The notes under the pieces are model-generated. The model was not told the origin of the DNA and ran no database searches. It worked only from the letters and a program-made list of their open reading frames with translations. 46,741 bases of DNA from Alphaproteobacteria bacterium (GTDB lineage Bacteria > Pseudomonadota > Alphaproteobacteria > Rs-D84), in contig JBMNPL010000004.1 in NCBI GenBank assembly GCA_050943575.1, positions 1-46,741 on the forward strand, written 5' to 3'. The stretch's first letter is position 1; every line of letters starts with the position of its first letter. Position numbers and translations under genes: made by a program. Shown piece after piece: positions 40,011 through 46,741 of the stretch.

Positions 40011-40276
40011 TCTCATCTTTTGACCACAACAAAAAATAAAATGACCAAAAAAGGTCATTTAATTTTTTGGCGCGCCCAGAAAGATGGCACATTCCCATTT
40101 TATGGGTCCCTTTCGCGTCGTAAGGTTCAAACTTCACAATGTTTGTTTTCACCAACTTCCCGCTCCGAACTCTACGCCACTTTGTGGCTTTTACCGAGTT
40201 CTCATCTTTCATTGACCACAGCAAAAAACAAAATGACCAAAAAGGTCATTTAATTTTTTGGCGCGCCCAGAAAGAT
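40011..40276 (-). repeat. tRNA-linked direct repeat (40011-40085 vs 40200-40276) containing the tRNA-Arg 3' 18 nt and terminator
   Basis: About 75 bp near-identical, period about 191 bp; TGGCGCGCCCAGAAAGAT at 40068 and 40259; AAATGACC/GGTCATTT hairpin in both copies. Confidence 0.9.
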
Positions 40277-40335
40277 TCGAACTCTCAGTCTTCTGATCCG
40301 TAGTCAGATGCTTTATCCAGTTAAGCTATGGGCGC
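40259..40335 (-). tRNA. tRNA-Arg(ACG)
   Basis: GCGCCCA/TGGGCGC acceptor stem, TCTGA-CT-ACG-GA-TCAGA anticodon arm, TTCGAAT T loop, CCA. Confidence 0.96.
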
Positions 40336-40887: not shown

Positions 40888-43005
40888 ATGAGAAAAGTTT
40901 TCGCAATCGCGTTTGCTGTTATTTTTGCTTTGCCTGCATTTGCCGCAGAAAAGCCCGCGTCAACCACACGTGTTGGTGCAATCAGATCAACCGCTTCACG
41001 TGCCCCAGCCACAGTGGCTGCTGTTAAAAAACTACAGGCATCAGATATAAATCCATCATCACCAGCAGTAAAATCATCCACATCTGTTAAAACAGAAAAT
41101 ACAAAAACCCAAGAAGAAACAGATTGCAGAACTGAATATCGTAAATGTATGGATGATTTTTGTTTACTAGATGAACCCGAAGGGTTGCGTTGCGCTTGTT
41201 CTGATAACATTGATGCGTCCAAATCAATAATTAAAGAAATTCAAAAAATTCAAAAAGATGCTGAAAAACTATTTAGCGAGGGTGTAGAACGTGAAAAACT
41301 TGGCGCTCGTGCAGAATTGGCTTTTGCGGAAAATAAAAATAATAAAGCGAAAAGCAATCGTTTTGCGGCTTGGTTGGAATCAGGAAGTCTCATCGGTGAA
41401 GAACAAGAACTTGATGAAGATTTGGAAATAGGTGCTGATTTATTTAATATGGCGTCCGAGCATTGCGCAAGTAAACTAGATGCTTGTCCTGATACTGCTG
41501 AAATGGAAAAACTATTATATTCACGTATGATTACAGCAGATTGTAAATCTTTCAGTCAATATCTTGATACGCAAAAAATCGCCGCAGAACAAAATAAAGC
41601 CGCCGCTGAAAAAGCAGTTCGTACCGCACGAGTAGAAATGTTAGATACGACAAATAAATATAATCGTGGCGAATGTTTATTGGCTTACAAGGCTTGTATC
41701 TCGGACAAGGGCGGTTGCGGGGTTAATTTTGAAAATTGTATGGATGAATCTTTATTACAACGTCGCGCCAATGCATGCTCGGATGTTTTGGATCAATGTA
41801 TGGCGGTTAAACAAGATGTATTAAAAGATTGGGCAGAAGAAACCAAAGTTGTATTAGCACAGGCTGCCGAATACGAGCGCACAAATAAACCATTAATGTG
41901 TCGTTCAAAAATTCGTGCTTGTTTGGAAGAAGGGTGCAACACATCAACAAATGTTATGTGTTTAACAGATATTAATGTTGCGGCGGGAATATGCCCAATA
42001 ATTGATGATTGTGATGCATTAGTGCCAGGATTAAAAGAGGCGTATAAAGACGAATTAGCAGCATTACGTGTGAATTTTTGTCAGAATGATGTAACAAAAT
42101 GTATGCAAGACAAATGCGGTTCTAATTTTACAGCACCAGAATGTGTGGGACAAAAGATAAGCGATTTACAACACATGTGTCCACAATCAATGTTTCCATC
42201 TTGTAAAGATATTCAAAATTATGATGCGATTAAAGCTGCGGTTGCATTACGCGTAGATTATAATTTATTAAATGGGTGTGTAAATTTTGCAGAAGAATTT
42301 TTGGGTAAATCAGGTTGTGGTACAGAAATGAATTGTATCCCAGAAGATCCACGTATTACATCTCTGACTGAAATTCCATCTAACGAAGGGGAGTTCAAGG
42401 CAGAATTAATCGCCGCAGCCGAAGCCGCATCAGATAAATTTTTTGATGATATGGAAAAAGAATCTCTAATTGCTTCAAGGTGCGTAGAATCTGCTCAACC
42501 AGCAGGTAAAAAATCATTCAAAGGAACAATGTTCGGAGAATTAAGACTAAAAGGTCGCATTGCAGCGGTTAAAAGAATGGAAAGATTATATAATAAAAAA
42601 GTTGATGAAATTTCTCGTTCTAAATCCTTGGAAGAAGCACGTGCCAGATGTGATGAAATTTACGCCGAAGCAGTTGCACAAAATAGCCCTCATGATCGCA
42701 GTGAAAACAAAGAAGGTAGTTGGACGACGGCATATATCTTTGAACCAGATTTACGTAATTGTCAATTAACTCGCTGGGAAAAAGTTTGTGAAACTGGCGG
42801 TGAATCCAAAGCCTCGGGTATAACCAAGGGGGTTGCTGGTGGTGCAGCATTGGGCGCCAGTGCAGGTAGTGCTTTTGGTGGATGGGGAACTTTAATAGGC
42901 GTTGTTGTTGGTGGTGCAGGTGGTGCAATTGCAGGTGGTAAAACAGCAAACAAACAAACAATATGTCACGAAGTTGGCCCAATTTACGAAGATAGAAATA
43001 TCTGA
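40888..43005 (+). CDS. Secreted Cys-rich protein, family paralog B, with C-terminal glycine zipper
   Basis: Signal peptide MRKVF...AFA, CMDDFC core, GVAGGAALGASAGSAFGGWGTLIG. Start could also be TTG 40882. Confidence 0.88.
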   Translation: MRKVFAIAFAVIFALPAFAAEKPASTTRVGAIRSTASRAPATVAAVKKLQASDINPSSPAVKSSTSVKTENTKTQEETDCRTEYRKCMDDFCLLDEPEGLRCACSDNIDASKSIIKEIQKIQKDAEKLFSEGVEREKLGARAELAFAENKNNKAKSNRFAAWLESGSLIGEEQELDEDLEIGADLFNMASEHCASKLDACPDTAEMEKLLYSRMITADCKSFSQYLDTQKIAAEQNKAAAEKAVRTARVEMLDTTNKYNRGECLLAYKACISDKGGCGVNFENCMDESLLQRRANACSDVLDQCMAVKQDVLKDWAEETKVVLAQAAEYERTNKPLMCRSKIRACLEEGCNTSTNVMCLTDINVAAGICPIIDDCDALVPGLKEAYKDELAALRVNFCQNDVTKCMQDKCGSNFTAPECVGQKISDLQHMCPQSMFPSCKDIQNYDAIKAAVALRVDYNLLNGCVNFAEEFLGKSGCGTEMNCIPEDPRITSLTEIPSNEGEFKAELIAAAEAASDKFFDDMEKESLIASRCVESAQPAGKKSFKGTMFGELRLKGRIAAVKRMERLYNKKVDEISRSKSLEEARARCDEIYAEAVAQNSPHDRSENKEGSWTTAYIFEPDLRNCQLTRWEKVCETGGESKASGITKGVAGGAALGASAGSAFGGWGTLIGVVVGGAGGAIAGGKTANKQTICHEVGPIYEDRNI

Positions 43006-43021
43006 TTTATCGGAGAAGAGA

Positions 43022-45676
43022 ATGAGAAAAATATTTTCAATTTTAATGGTAATAATCGGTTGTTTTACAATAACAAATTTGGATGCTGCGCCTATCTCGT
43101 CCTCCAAGGCGAAAAAGGGTATTTCAGTTGTAAGCAAAGGCGGAACATCTGTTCGTGCCAGAGTTGCACCCACTGGAATTTATGATCAATCATGTTATGA
43201 AGCATATTATGGTTGTATGGATTCATTTTGTGTTGGTGATTCTGCGGTATTAAATATACCAGGTGAACCTGTAACTTTGGATGGAGGTACTTGTGCATGC
43301 AGTAATGATAATCAAGGATTCAAAGATAAAATCGCAAAAATGAATGAGCAATTAAATCAGGCAAATATTCTTAAAACCATAGAAGTTGAAAAAGTAGAAG
43401 CCGGTGCCAAAGCAGATATTATTTTCACAGGCAGCCGAGAATATGACGATTCTGGCAAGGTTGTAGGTCTGGATAAAAAAGATAAAAAAGCCGATCGTCA
43501 AAACTTATTGGCATTATGGGATGATATAGAAGACGACGAAGAAGCCGAGATAGATATTGCGGACTTATCTGGCGCGGAACTTTATTCTGCTGCTAATGAA
43601 TTATGCAAAGAGCAAATGCCAGAAAACTGCAATAAAGATATGAATTTTTTAACATCATTTTATAGTTCACAAATTAAATCTGATTGCAAAGCATTTGATA
43701 ATACAATTGCAAAAATGCAAGCAACAGTAGATGCTGAATATGCATCAGCTGAAAAAGAAGTGCGAGATGCTCGTATGGCTTCATTTGAAACTGCAAACGA
43801 ATATGATCGTGGAACTTGTATGTTGAATTTTCGTAAATGTATGACAGGCGAAGATGTTTGTGGGGCAGATTGGTCCAAGTGTGTGAATTTTATTGCCGCG
43901 GAAAATATGCAAAATAATAAAAGAACCGAAAATGTGTCTGCACAGAAAGTAGAACATATTGCAAAGTATAAAATAACAGATACTACAATGGAAATATTAG
44001 AATCCAAACGCAATATTTGTGAAAACGTTTTGGATAAATGTGTTGCTGTTCGTGATAATGTATGGGATGACTTTTTACGTGAAGTAGCACCAACTTTAAA
44101 AGTTGCTGAATTAAATGTGGAATCAAATTTGCGTCAATCTTGTTTGACTGATATTTCAAATTGTATACAGAAAGCCTGTAAAGACGATATAGAGGGCAAA
44201 GGTGTTGCAACAATGGATGCGTGTTTATCACGTCCTGATATGGCACGATCATTTTGTAAAGTTCAAATTGAAACTTGCGAGCGAATGGAACCATTAATTT
44301 GGGGATATGTTACTGATAAACTAGCATCAATGCGTGTTGATGCCTGCACAACAGAGGTTAAAAATTGCTTAACATCAGAAGATCGTTGTGGCAAAGATTA
44401 TTCAGGTTGTGTTGGGCTTGATACTGATACAATTATTAAAATGTGCCCCGAAGATAAATTAGTTGGTTGTCAAAAAAATGGTGTGTTTTCTTGGAATGAA
44501 GTTGAAAGAATCATCAGTGGAATTATGTTAAATATTGATAATAACTTGCTTGAAGTATGTCAAAATGCGGTTGATGAAGCGATGGTAAAAGTTTGTGGTG
44601 ATACTGAAAGTTGTGATAATTTGATTGTTGAAAATGGCGGATTAAGTTTAAAATATGAAGTTTGTGAATATAAAGCTGATCCAACAGATAATTCCAAAAT
44701 ACTTCCAACAGAGGTTTGTTATACTTCTTTAGAAGCGATACCCGAAGCAAGATTAAAAGATCAGACCAAAAACGGTTTAGCAGGATTTATTAAAAACACT
44801 TTATTCTGGGGTGAAATATCGTATGATTTTGAAAATAATACATTTACATCTTGGGATGAATATAAAGATTCTGTTGGGTTAGCAAGCGGATCAGAAAGCG
44901 AAAAATACGCACGTGAAGGATTTGATTTGGAAATGAAGCAATTGGGAAATTCTGTTACAAATGCGATTAAAACCATTGAATCTGATCCAGTTGTTCAATT
45001 TTGTATGACAGGTCGTGAAGTCCAAGGCATGCGCGATGACAAAGGCAGACTTAAAAAATTGGGCGGTGTTGGCAAGGATTTTGCAAGATTTCCAAATATA
45101 ACACAACAACTTCGTGGAATAATTGCAACCTCTGCATTAATTGCTGCACAAAAAAAATATTCAGAAAAATATGAAGAATTAAATATAAAAATGGCATCTG
45201 ATCAGGTTAAAGCAGCAGAAAAATTAGATGTTGCCGCAACAGGTCAAACATGTTTTGATTTAGCAAAAACTTCTACTTTACCAAAATCCAAAGCCCCAAA
45301 GAAAAGTGATGCTGGTAAATGGGTTGCTGTAGGGACTTTGATAGCGGTTGGTGTTGTAGCATCAATATTTACATTCGGAATAGGGGGAGTTACTGCTTGG
45401 GCTGGTGCTGCTGCTATAGCTGCTGGTAGTGTTGGTGTAGCGACAGTAGGTGGAGCAACCGCTGTTGCAACAACTGGAAATACCAAGGGTGAAGCCCATG
45501 TTGAAAATTGGAATTATAAAGAAAGTGTCACAACTACTTGGAATGCGGATTCTGGGGTTTGTACCAAAGTCAGAGTTTATCAAAACTGCAAAAAAGTAAA
45601 GAAAAACTATTGTAAAGAATGGGAAGAACCAAAAACCGAAACCCAAGAAATTTCATTACGAGGCGACAAGAAATAA
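43022..45676 (+). CDS. Secreted Cys-rich protein, family paralog C (884 aa), with hydrophobic Gly/Ala hairpin
   Basis: ATG 43022 with GGAG RBS 16 bp after paralog B; signal peptide MRKIF...LDA; CMDSFC core. Confidence 0.88.
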   Translation: MRKIFSILMVIIGCFTITNLDAAPISSSKAKKGISVVSKGGTSVRARVAPTGIYDQSCYEAYYGCMDSFCVGDSAVLNIPGEPVTLDGGTCACSNDNQGFKDKIAKMNEQLNQANILKTIEVEKVEAGAKADIIFTGSREYDDSGKVVGLDKKDKKADRQNLLALWDDIEDDEEAEIDIADLSGAELYSAANELCKEQMPENCNKDMNFLTSFYSSQIKSDCKAFDNTIAKMQATVDAEYASAEKEVRDARMASFETANEYDRGTCMLNFRKCMTGEDVCGADWSKCVNFIAAENMQNNKRTENVSAQKVEHIAKYKITDTTMEILESKRNICENVLDKCVAVRDNVWDDFLREVAPTLKVAELNVESNLRQSCLTDISNCIQKACKDDIEGKGVATMDACLSRPDMARSFCKVQIETCERMEPLIWGYVTDKLASMRVDACTTEVKNCLTSEDRCGKDYSGCVGLDTDTIIKMCPEDKLVGCQKNGVFSWNEVERIISGIMLNIDNNLLEVCQNAVDEAMVKVCGDTESCDNLIVENGGLSLKYEVCEYKADPTDNSKILPTEVCYTSLEAIPEARLKDQTKNGLAGFIKNTLFWGEISYDFENNTFTSWDEYKDSVGLASGSESEKYAREGFDLEMKQLGNSVTNAIKTIESDPVVQFCMTGREVQGMRDDKGRLKKLGGVGKDFARFPNITQQLRGIIATSALIAAQKKYSEKYEELNIKMASDQVKAAEKLDVAATGQTCFDLAKTSTLPKSKAPKKSDAGKWVAVGTLIAVGVVASIFTFGIGGVTAWAGAAAIAAGSVGVATVGGATAVATTGNTKGEAHVENWNYKESVTTTWNADSGVCTKVRVYQNCKKVKKNYCKEWEEPKTETQEISLRGDKK

Positions 45677-45720
45677 AAACATCATCTCCTTTGTGATAAC
45701 TCATGCGACTCTTCCCCTTA

Positions 45721-45768
45721 TGTGTCATTCCTGCGCCCTCTTTGTGTCATTCCTGCGCAGGCAGGAAT
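45721..45768. repeat. REP-like palindrome with tandem half copy
   Basis: TGTGTCATTCCTGCGC at 45721 and 45743; ATTCCTGC-GCAG-GCAGGAAT hairpin (45749-45768). Confidence 0.8.
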
Positions 45769-45809
45769 AGGGCTTGCTTTATAAATAAATAAGAGTATTT
45801 TATACTGGA

Positions 45810-45837
45810 TTTACAAAAAATCTTAAATTAATATTAT
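45810..45837 (+). promoter_or_regulatory. Probable promoter of the tRNA-Pro locus
   Basis: TTTACA, 16 bp, TATTAT, 11 nt before the first tRNA-Pro 5' end. Confidence 0.55.
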
Positions 45838-45848
45838 TGTTTAACATT

Positions 45849-45884
45849 CGGAGTGTAGCTCAGCCTGGTAGAGTGCTGCGTTCG
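45849..45884 (+). pseudogene. 5' half of tRNA-Pro (first 36 nt, ends inside the anticodon)
   Basis: 45840-45884 is identical to 46229-46273; no 3' half follows. Confidence 0.9.
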
Positions 45885-45993
45885 CCCGTCTTGTTCGCGA
45901 ATATTTCGCAATCAAGCCGAGGTTTTTACCGATGGCTATAAAAAGACGGAGCGTCTCGGCTGTTTTTTGTAACATACGGACGGGAGGAAAATA

Positions 45994-46233
45994 ATGTTTT
46001 ATGTTTACATACTTCAAAGTATAAATGAACCAGAACATTTTTATACTGGATTTACAAAAAATCTTAAGTTAAGATTTGCACAACATAATTCAGGAAAGGC
46101 ACGTCAGACAAATCGTCATAAGCCTTGGAAAATAAAATGTTATTTTGCTTTTGATAATAAAGAAAAAGCAGAAATGTTTGAAAAATATTTGAAAACTCAT
46201 GCTGGGCGTGATTTTCAAAAAAAGCATTTTTAA
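45994..46233 (+). CDS. Stand-alone GIY-YIG nuclease (Slx1/YhbQ-like)
   Basis: YVYIL.S...FYTG.T.NL..R..QHNSG...A...EKYLK; GGAGG RBS. Confidence 0.93.
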   Translation: MFYVYILQSINEPEHFYTGFTKNLKLRFAQHNSGKARQTNRHKPWKIKCYFAFDNKEKAEMFEKYLKTHAGRDFQKKHF

Positions 46234-46237
46234 CATT

Positions 46238-46314
46238 CGGAGTGTAGCTCAGCCTGGTAGAGTGCTGCGTTCGGGACGCAGAGGTCGTGGGTTCGAACCC
46301 CGCCACTCCGACCA
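46238..46314 (+). tRNA. tRNA-Pro(CGG)
   Basis: CGGAGTG/CACTCCG acceptor stem, CTGCG-TT-CGG-GA-CGCAG anticodon arm, GTTCGAA, ACCA. Confidence 0.97.
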
Positions 46315-46329
46315 AGAATTTACCCCTAT

Positions 46330-46677
46330 TTATCTATATTTTACACAATATTTTTTATATTTATTAGCCACGCAGAATTTACAACAATCAATTTCAAAAG
46401 TTTTCCAATTTTCTATCGCGCGTTCTAAAAACTCTTTATCTTTCTTTGGTAAATGATAATATTCTATTGCTTGAAAAGTTAATTTATATTTTTGTTCTTC
46501 CCAAACACAAGGCGGCAAATCGGCTTTAATATGATTTAATGTTTTATGAGCAAGAAAGATATTATCATTCAAAGAATAAATACGTGGCGGTAATAAACAT
46601 TTAGGATAATAATGTTCAATGCTGATTTTATTAGCTGGTATCTTTAATTTAGATAAAAAACAAATTATTTCTTTCAT
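46330..46677 (-). CDS. Small HNH-endonuclease-like protein
   Basis: SIEHYYPK...DNIFLAHKTLNHIK fits the H-N-N beta-beta-alpha-metal pattern; Cys cluster at the C-terminus. Confidence 0.65.
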   Translation of the reverse strand: MKEIICFLSKLKIPANKISIEHYYPKCLLPPRIYSLNDNIFLAHKTLNHIKADLPPCVWEEQKYKLTFQAIEYYHLPKKDKEFLERAIENWKTFEIDCCKFCVANKYKKYCVKYR

Positions 46678-46741
46678 TTTTATTTATTAGAATTTTTATC
46701 CATTAGTTTTTAAGTGAGTTAGTATTATATTAAAATCAATC

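Follow-up and report, generated by a model that had tools for sequence, protein, structure and literature searches.

Organisation of the locus

The DNA analysed here (the window) is the whole of contig JBMNPL010000004.1, 46,741 nt in length, from an 846-kb, 35% G+C draft genome of an alphaproteobacterium (GCA_050943575.1, lineage Rs-D84; 60 contigs; labelled G000, with G-, L- and C-numbers denoting genomes, loci and contigs, respectively). Close to its right end, a transfer RNA (tRNA) gene for tRNA-Pro(CGG) is preceded by a small GIY-YIG nuclease gene, a structured leader and a second copy of the tRNA's own 5′ part, an arrangement to which we refer as the cassette. The tRNA gene is intact with 77 contiguous nucleotides (ARAGORN; Rfam tRNA 63.2 bits), and its 5′ part belongs to a perfect direct repeat of 45 bp with a spacing of 389. 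This repeat comprises 9 nt of tRNA leader and nt 1-36 of the tRNA gene and ends after the second anticodon base (C-G↓G; ...GCGTTCG↓, with ↓ marking the junction here and below); 45 identical positions out of 45 inside 1.7 kb cannot be chance. Between the repeat copies, a 109-nt segment is followed by a single open reading frame (ORF), whose TAA stop codon (46231-46233) lies inside the second copy, 4 nt ahead of tRNA position +1. No integrase or transposase was detected between the repeats, where the GIY-YIG gene is the only ORF with a family match. An initial annotation of this DNA had already described the perfect repeat, the structured segment and the 79-amino-acid GIY-YIG gene between its copies, the stop codon within the second copy and the lack of a recombinase, and all of this was reproduced down to the coordinates (Table 1).

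Overlooked at that stage was a 36/38 copy of ORF codons 15-27 (46039-46076) at 45798-45835; immediately behind it, the ORF end recurs in slightly altered form (ATTgTTTAACATT vs CATTTTTAACATT). As judged from these remnants, a decayed older cassette is located directly upstream of the window cassette, and its presence would explain both why the perfect repeat takes in the stop codon and why the native tRNA promoter is not seen at this locus. The rebuilt tRNA-Pro(CGG) retains GTTCG in its anticodon loop and in its T-loop and is identical in sequence to that of G001, G003, G005 and G006. The stretch is present, whole or in part, in 20 sequencing runs from 13 studies (bioreactor, landfill, biogas). 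In two runs, from two other studies, contigs bridge the junctions from flank to repeat (45600-45869), from repeat to tRNA 3′ half (46244-46325) and through repeat, leader, gene and repeat (45840-46258 and 45855-46258).

Table 1. Features of the cassette and of the older copy preceding it in the window
Feature	Position	Strand	Remarks
GIY-YIG remnant of the putative older copy, codons 15-27	45798-45835	+	translated match to residues 15-28, 79% identity
Promoter-like TTTACA-16-TATTAT in the remnant; candidate start of a fragment-leader-nuclease-tRNA transcript	45810-45837	+	10/12 consensus matches
Older copy's ORF end, stop and spacer, near copy (ATTGTTTAACATT)	45836-45848	+	vs 46225-46237 CATTTTTAACATT; last 9 nt = perfect repeat
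Direct repeat, copy 1	45840-45884	+	45/45 identical to copy 2
tRNA-Pro(CGG) 5′ fragment, gene nt 1-36, end ...GCGTTCG in the anticodon loop	45849-45884	+	0 mismatches to 46238-46273
Conserved structured leader	45885-45993	+	fold z -2.61; homologues in aligned loci
Leader P1	45885-45890 with 45979-45984	+	
Leader hairpin	45897-45909	+	
Leader P2	45916-45922 with 45954-45960	+	
Leader central palindrome	45944-45956	+	
Shine-Dalgarno GGAGG	45983-45987	+	overlapping the P1 3′ strand
Stand-alone GIY-YIG nuclease gene (79 amino acids), UPF0213/SLX1 branch, stop included	45994-46233	+	PF01541
Direct repeat, copy 2: ORF end and tRNA nt 1-36	46229-46273	+	
Rebuilt intact tRNA-Pro(CGG)	46238-46314	+	start 4 nt past the stop codon

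The same architecture in relatives

Homologues of the nuclease were found in 13 of 41 sampled relatives (E <= 0.01). At E <= 1e-20, 99 of the 299 family genomes carry them, at most five per genome, and the distribution is patchy. The 14 distinct loci nearest to the window protein, termed class A, form one clade in a quick maximum-likelihood tree (SH-like approximate likelihood-ratio test 93; 15 rows, one locus having been entered twice), and this clade is nested within a 98-supported clade of family-specific relatives. In all 14 loci a full tRNA starts at most 39 nt past the stop codon, and in 12 of them the junction GTTCG↓C[CT]CGT connects the leader to a truncated version of this tRNA. The two exceptions are L009, in which other sequence replaces the fragment and the leader 5′ part, and L112, where the contig ends within the locus; the junction of L112 is visible in L281, its other half. 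Searching with the junction and leader pattern led to 15 sites, distributed over 13 of the order's 328 genomes and confined to one family, including two new sites without ORF; as the pattern itself contains the junction, the junction rule carries independent weight only for the protein-derived loci. In total, class A amounts to 16 sites, which are spread over 14 genomes of a single alphaproteobacterial family with small genomes, and the search for GIY-YIG genes flanked by tRNA 5′-part repeats, which had been proposed with the initial annotation, was thus successful.

Among the targets, tRNA-Pro(CGG) is interrupted in the anticodon loop in four genomes from two subclades. All others are interrupted in the T-loop, namely tRNA-Pro(GGG) at eight sites and tRNA-Pro(TGG), tRNA-Val(TAC), tRNA-Val(GAC) and tRNA-Met(CAT) at one site each, the latter two without ORF. 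The earlier idea of an insertion into a tRNA gene that is mended by the duplicated 5′ part is borne out by the intact tRNA that follows and by the same layout at six tRNA species in relatives. Wherever the left junction is readable, it immediately follows GTTCG in a 7-nt hairpin loop, which is TTCGGGA behind G for the Pro-CGG anticodon loop and TTCGA(A/G)T behind G53 for the T-loops. What all sites have in common would therefore be a cut behind the fourth base of a 7-nt loop, corresponding to G57↓A58 in the T-loop. The anticodon, originally regarded as the site, is the correct position for tRNA-Pro(CGG), but it does not define the target, which is GTTCG↓ in a 7-nt loop and usually in the T-loop. 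By eye, a GT[CG]NNNNGTTCG context was noticed at the insertion-site tRNAs.

Duplicated fragment, serial insertions and empty sites

In all 10 loci where the duplicated fragment (36 or 58 nt) could be seeded, it matches the live tRNA at every position. In the orthologous pair L113/L118, flanks (77% and 60% identity), leader (86%) and ORF (82%; synonymous divergence, dS, 0.75) have diverged, and fragment and tRNA are 100% identical, with none of 36 fragment positions differing. As this identity persists despite a dS of 0.75, the fragment appears to be kept in step with the live gene, through either gene conversion or selection. In L008, among other relatives, the fragment carries the native promoter position, and where a native-looking promoter precedes it (L008, L108, L113, L118 and L010), the exact repeat starts 1-2 nt before tRNA +1. 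The repeat reaches further upstream in the window (9 nt), L011 (6 nt), L109-111 (3-7 nt) and L115 (19 nt). In these longer-repeat loci, and also in L281, the upstream DNA resembles the end of another cassette, with remnants of an ORF end ahead of the fragment, and we read the longer-repeat loci as apparent serial insertions into a rebuilt tRNA, which still holds the target. Copies without ORF and decayed copies exist as well, one of the latter being that in the window. Two leaders that are near-identical by eye were detected at different tRNAs in G009 (Pro-CGG and Met-CAT) and in G024 (Val-TAC and Val-GAC), and each of them is flanked by the 5′ part of the local tRNA, indicating that the duplicated piece is derived from the target and not carried along from the donor.

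Comparison with seven other genomes of the genus led to the empty alleles that the initial annotation had called for. An uninterrupted tRNA-Pro(CGG) behind a TTGCAT/TTGCGT...GCATAAT promoter is present in G001, G002 and G006; G005 has the same upstream half as these empty alleles and a contig end inside the tRNA, and the tRNA-Pro(CGG) sites of G007 and G004 are cut by contig ends. In G001, a 40% identical homologue of the 924-amino-acid gene upstream of the window cassette is found at the same position, and a similar terminator follows the tRNA; such a same-position homologue was observed in G001 only, and the gene belongs to a multi-copy family. G003 (L134, G003:C1, about 1360-1614) carries a 5′ fragment to nt ~41, past GTTCG, then 95 nt and the tRNA, and no nuclease gene. 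As the 95-nt stretch contains two short matches to the class A leader (CTGCGGAC and CCGATGG), this site is possibly an eroded cassette whose fragment underwent gene conversion. At L140 (G004:C10, ~1470-1500), a 30-nt insert (CCAGCCTTCGCCTAGGG...) was seen between promoter and tRNA-Pro(CGG) of G004, which resembles the start of a class B leader with CCA ahead of it; only the first 34 nt of the tRNA are present before the contig end.

The nuclease

The 79-amino-acid protein matches PF01541 with E 2.6e-16 (60.1 bits vs a cut-off of 22.6), residues 1-72 covering profile positions 1-74 of 78. Y5, Y17, R27, H31, N32 and E63 do not vary among 11 aligned relatives, and we take the active-site roles of GIY-YIG nucleases to be filled by the Tyr of GIY, the Tyr of YIG, Arg, His/Asn and Glu. 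The class A ORFs have diverged from dS 0.75 up to saturation, and a ratio of nonsynonymous to synonymous changes of 0.06-0.17 reflects purifying selection. The best matches among solved structures are UPF0213 proteins (1zg2, 3e-9; 1ywl, 1.6e-4) and SLX1 (7cq2, 1.1e-7; 4xlg, 2.5e-6; also 6seh). Thus, the protein belongs to the UPF0213/YhbQ-YazA-SLX1 branch and not to the classical homing endonucleases, to which the initial annotation had related it. SLX1/UPF0213 proteins are described as structure-specific nucleases, and SLX1 as carrying a C-terminal PHD/RING-type zinc finger (PMC7017083). Such a finger is absent from the window protein, which ends at residue 79 without a second Pfam domain, and so is a separate DNA-binding domain as in I-TevI, Seg or Mob, the 79 residues representing the catalytic domain only. 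Homologues of near length have 79-136 residues, longer forms not having been searched for, and the public names of relatives read 'GIY-YIG nuclease family protein' only. No match was obtained in the PADLOC defence families or NCBIfam, and PHROGs gave one weak match to a family of unassigned function. Among 2.9 million viral contigs only three relatives were detected, with no tRNA in their 0.9-1.4-kb loci, and carriage by phages is not supported.

A wider family of tRNA- and tmRNA-linked cassettes

A scan of one genome per species gave at least 572 confirmed relatives, and the following locus counts refer to the best 80 of these at least 572. They come from many phyla and include Bradyrhizobium, Akkermansia, Acidobacteriota, Lentisphaerota and Patescibacteria. 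A same-strand tRNA (47 loci) or transfer-messenger RNA (tmRNA; 12 loci) ends at most 330 nt upstream, with a median of 140 nt, in 59 of the 80, and 21 have no upstream tRNA or tmRNA, seven of them with too short an upstream sequence. The spacer begins right after CCA with a related motif (NNCTTCGC ... GCGAAGNN ... CGCCG(W)AGC-hairpin-GCGAAGGCGGRC). Within this bacteria-wide set of mini GIY-YIG cassettes, the leaders of which are related, class A represents one derived branch. A tRNA 3′ piece behind the gene was observed for a minority of loci, namely five of those compared (see below) as well as L273 and L274, and the 3′ pieces start at A58 (L124, L273 and L274) or at T60 (L060), which indicates use of the same phosphodiester in the sister lineages as at the class A left junction. 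Some cassettes lie between two tRNA genes (L042 and L074).

Related units without ORF were also encountered. On the minus strand of the window, behind tRNA-Arg(ACG) (40259-40335), a 191-bp unit (40032-40276) is bounded by a 54-nt direct repeat (40032-40085 and 40223-40276; 87% identity ungapped) that extends from T-loop A59 through CCA and the terminator hairpin. Its 137-nt inner part ends with ...GGGAATGTGCC, resembling the cassette tail of L273, and the unit looks like a decayed sister cassette without ORF. Leader-like motifs without ORF follow right after the CCA of tRNA-Met (L286, ~1725-1800), tRNA-Val (L291, ~1642-1730) and tRNA-Pro (L008, 3′ of the gene), which suggests solo leaders of the 3′-end-linked classes that resemble miniature inverted-repeat transposable elements (MITEs).

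Leader RNA and transcription

The window leader folds with a minimum free energy of -34.3 kcal/mol, and 2 of 200 shuffled sequences were as good. Besides tRNA, no Rfam family was detected in 45000-46741 (E <= 5) or in seven related loci (E <= 1). Class A leaders can be aligned with those of class C sister cassettes, which begin right after the tRNA CCA (14 aligned loci), with CCCGTCT..., GCCG(A/C)GGTT, ACGGAG(C/T)G(T/C)C(T/G)CGGC and ...GACGG(A/G)C as common blocks. From this mixed MAFFT alignment RNAalifold recovered only P2, as variable hairpins misalign; one P2 pair changes from AU (seven sequences) to CG (six), and a G-U pair occurs in 9 of 14. P1 is formed by the first 6-9 nt of the leader and the bases just ahead of the start codon, with compensatory changes across subfamilies. 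In 22 of 80 loci this pairing is Watson-Crick at 9 of 9 positions, and the mean run is 6.0 compared to 4.2 for non-cognate pairs, with 31 distinct 5′ 9-mers. Consensus folds calculated per class gave the same P1/P2 for classes C and Bp. In class D the 5′ end favours pairing with a middle copy of its partner, and two alternative leader folds are therefore possible. As the closing stem P1 overlaps the Shine-Dalgarno sequence in the window (Table 1), the leader probably controls translation of the nuclease mRNA or stabilises it.

The widespread class B leaders, found behind tRNA or tmRNA genes in L028-L107 (e.g. L041, L069 and L034), terminate with a hairpin that contains an internal loop with GUA opposite GAA (CGCCG-UAGC...GCGAAG-GCGG). 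By eye this is a loop-E/k-turn-like motif, absent from Rfam 15, which would argue for a function at the RNA level. Guide-like complementarity between leader and target was also looked for by eye, and nothing consistent was found. A metagenome scan with a 15-mer of the leader core gave at least 120 hits, none of the 80 fetched loci having a same-strand GIY-YIG frame, and these were discarded as chance hits in GC-rich DNA.

Regarding transcription, the promoter-like TTTACA-16-TATTAT ahead of the fragment is a lead only, as the promoter scan overall was not above shuffled sequences (6 found, 4.9 expected). From the 4-nt gap, the absence of any promoter-like site found in the ORF 3′ part and one RNA-library contig (see below), we infer that the tRNA is co-transcribed with the nuclease.

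Proposed mechanism and alternatives

Therefore, from the duplicated 5′ part, the common junction, the empty sites and the conserved nuclease, it is moderately probable that the window holds a small mobile cassette that targets tRNA genes without an integrase and consists of leader, nuclease and tRNA copy. The unit comprises the structured leader of ~110 nt, the 79-amino-acid GIY-YIG nuclease and the target tRNA repeated from nucleotide 1 as far as the insertion site, and the leader is joined after GTTCG, either at T-loop G57↓A58 or, in tRNA-Pro(CGG), in the anticodon loop (G-TTCG↓GGA). Since the 5′ part is present twice, the interrupted tRNA is made whole; the promoter-proximal copy thereby becomes a dead fragment, and the live tRNA stands behind the nuclease gene. 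The nuclease would cut or nick the sense strand in the loop at GTTCG↓, possibly on an extruded hairpin as suggested by its kinship to SLX1, and host repair or recombination would copy the cassette into the site, with repair synthesis or staggered breaks creating the duplication from the local target. The promoter of the fragment could then drive a single transcript of fragment, leader, nuclease and tRNA, from which RNase P might free the tRNA 4 nt behind the stop codon. With its target kept, the rebuilt tRNA would be open to re-invasion, which would explain the decayed older copy upstream in the window. The initial interpretation, a minimal selfish element that spreads by nuclease-initiated recombination at tRNA genes and is co-transcribed with the tRNA it restores, is thus partly supported.

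Two other origins were considered and rejected. For a 'cargo tRNA', in which the cassette brings a whole tRNA, a displaced 3′ piece should follow the live tRNA; none does, and the 3′ flank matches the empty alleles. An RNA-templated origin from mature tRNA came into view as repeats start at +1 and sister cassettes start after CCA. It is unlikely, as the leader follows right after the discriminator where CCA is not encoded (L083 and L058), and we know of no reverse transcriptase in these cassettes.

Several observations weigh against a mobile cassette driven by its own nuclease. The role of the nuclease in mobility would follow from linkage alone. The target survives the insertion, which is unusual for a homing nuclease, as a true homing endonuclease would go on cutting its own host allele. 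GTTCG occurs in 31 of 40 tRNA genes of the window genome and, in tRNA-Ala(CGC), additionally in the anticodon loop, and only one site is occupied, so that GTTCG is not sufficient as a target. Class A is rare (13 of 328 genomes) and old, copies within a genome are diverged subfamilies and not recent bursts, and the L010 fragment has diverged from its tRNA (7 of 58 nt). Among ~65 class B/C loci with an upstream tRNA that were compared, only five have a significant tRNA 3′ repeat (z > 4.5). The RNA-library contig (45864-46017) spans fragment, leader and ORF start, with its strand unreadable and DNA carry-over possible. Finally, four PF00589 (tyrosine-recombinase) matches are found in G000, outside the window on other contigs and one of them in a 429-amino-acid frame, so that help in trans is possible.

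The last point leads to an explanation in which other machinery moves the cassette, either a tyrosine integrase of a resident island or phage that attaches at anticodon loops and T-loops of tRNA genes and acts in trans, or RecA acting between tRNA copies, and the GIY-YIG protein is cargo that serves as an addiction, defence, repair or RNA nuclease. The survival of the target would fit, as would the two sublocations, both reportedly known from integrase-borne islands, and the attachment-site (att)-like repeats of sister cassettes, which extend from the T-loop to beyond the tRNA end as in the 54-nt repeat described above. Nevertheless, we regard it as unlikely, given that an integrase is absent between the repeats and beside all 16 class A sites examined, that recombination between attP and attB cannot give near-identical leaders each flanked by a different local tRNA 5′ part, and that nuclease gene and leader occur in tight linkage in different phyla, the gene being under purifying selection and without a match among the PADLOC defence families. 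A little less credible still is a vertically inherited relic that is not mobile at present, in which a 3′-end-linked cassette between tandem tRNAs on one occasion lost the 3′ part of the upstream copy and was then spread to similar tRNA genes by ordinary gene conversion. That class A is one clade in one family with diverged copies (dS 0.75 to saturated) agrees with such a history, as do the cassettes between two tRNA genes at L042 and L074 and the homogenisation of fragments with the live tRNA, a sign of active gene conversion at these loci. Against it stand an identical junction nucleotide at six tRNA species and in two different loops and the Pro-CGG anticodon-loop sites in two subclades; an intermediate with a full tRNA of one kind on both sides of the cassette was not seen among the 16 sites, and empty sites in the same genus and tandem remnants point to repeated insertion.

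That 45885-46273 is removed from the RNA like an intron, with the upstream 5′ fragment being used, is very improbable. Bacterial group I introns do sit in the same loops (PMC3984707, PMC11915505), and GIY-YIG genes often ride in introns, but no group I or other Rfam match was obtained at the thresholds given above, the complete downstream tRNA gene needs no splicing, and copies without ORF retain the duplication at the DNA level. The chance of an assembly artefact, i.e. a collapsed or chimeric repeat in a metagenome-assembled genome, is negligible. The draft has 60 contigs, repeats often break such assemblies, and misassembly had been named with the initial annotation as a possible refutation. 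Yet independent contigs from two other studies span all three junction types, the same architecture occurs in 13 other genomes, and a 45-bp repeat is shorter than a read.

Extending the mobile-cassette interpretation to the sister lineages, we propose tentatively, and with some doubt, a bacteria-wide class of integrase-less parasites of tRNA and tmRNA genes. These would be units of ~0.4 kb with a structured leader and an SLX1/UPF0213-type GIY-YIG nuclease of ~80 amino acids, which might cut the extruded T-arm or a look-alike anticodon hairpin at G57↓A58 and be pasted by host repair. A 3′ tRNA part or, in the lineage of the window, a 5′ part would thereby be duplicated, preserving the essential gene, and the leader would act as a regulator or cofactor of the nuclease.

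Neighbouring features

At 45714-45768, the window contains a palindromic repeat (GTCATTCCTGCGCAGGCAGGAAT) and, adjacent to it, a half copy. At least eight further copies exist in the 846-kb genome, including those on G000 contigs C3, C9, C17 and C37, and the repeat was also seen at L017 and L140; variants (...TTCCCGCG.AGGCGGGAAT) occur near tRNA genes in relatives. It is an element resembling repetitive extragenic palindromes (REPs) or MITEs. An ORF of 115 amino acids (46330-46677, minus strand) converges on the tRNA and shows an EH..P...N...H pattern by eye, which is reminiscent of HNH nucleases; searches of Pfam, NCBIfam, PHROGs and PADLOC gave no match for this ORF, and the genome contains no paralogue of it. 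The 924-amino-acid protein upstream (42902-45676, plus strand) is Cys-rich with a C-terminal hydrophobic stretch, has paralogues on C4 (two more), C3, C1, C20, C6 and C11, and belongs to no Pfam family.

Implications

If the proposed mechanism is correct, 'orphan' UPF0213/YhbQ-like proteins would gain a biological role, and stand-alone proteins of this type, kin of eukaryotic SLX1, would be tied to tRNA genes across phyla. The cassette would be about the smallest autonomous mobile unit able to live in an essential intron-free gene, and its 5′ duplication with re-use of the host promoter would represent a third route to harmless insertion, besides splicing and a replacement 3′ end. It would further provide a conserved leader RNA that is absent from Rfam and a very small nuclease of natural origin whose cut position, located in a conserved hairpin loop, is sharply defined. 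For annotation, tRNA fragments beside 'GIY-YIG family protein' genes would have to be regarded as scars of an element and not as assembly noise. In the full texts searched, with most subscription journals and supplements outside, neither tRNA-linked stand-alone mini GIY-YIG genes nor the leader are described.

Comparison with known systems

Seg proteins and classical GIY-YIG homing endonucleases have a catalytic domain linked to a separate DNA-binding domain. The window protein consists of a catalytic domain of 79 amino acids only and is nearest to UPF0213/SLX1. SegB is a free-standing GIY-YIG homing endonuclease gene in the T4 tRNA gene cluster of T-even phages and is thought to spread by cutting the cognate locus and repair copying (PMC2330249). 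The window cassette shares with it a GIY-YIG gene outside an intron and beside tRNA genes, but it is bacterial, chromosomal and not phage-borne, lies inside the tRNA gene, rebuilds this by duplication and has a conserved structured leader.

Group I introns are found in bacterial tRNA anticodon loops and tmRNA T-loops, some with homing endonuclease genes (PMC3984707, PMC11915505). Both systems are phenotypically neutral insertions in exactly these loops, sometimes with an endonuclease gene. The introns achieve this by splicing, whereas the cassette would be neutral through duplication at the DNA level, and no ribozyme signature was found in the Rfam search. Integrase-borne islands and prophages have reportedly been sorted by Williams in 2002 into sublocation classes within tRNA and tmRNA genes, including the anticodon loop and the T-loop. 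They resemble the cassette in the crossover at either loop and in a flanking repeat of a tRNA piece that keeps the tRNA whole. In contrast, the cassette has no integrase, measures 0.39 kb instead of kilobases, repeats the 5′ part and not the 3′ part, and derives this repeat from the local target, also where the tRNA species is a new one.

Closest at the protein level are SLX1 and the UPF0213 proteins YhbQ and YazA (1zg2, 1ywl, 7cq2 and 4xlg), with best structure matches of E 3e-9 to 2.7e-4 and conserved core residues in common. The window protein differs from SLX1 in having neither a zinc finger nor an SLX4-like partner, and from both in that its gene is linked to tRNA genes as well as to a leader RNA and seems to behave as part of a mobile unit.

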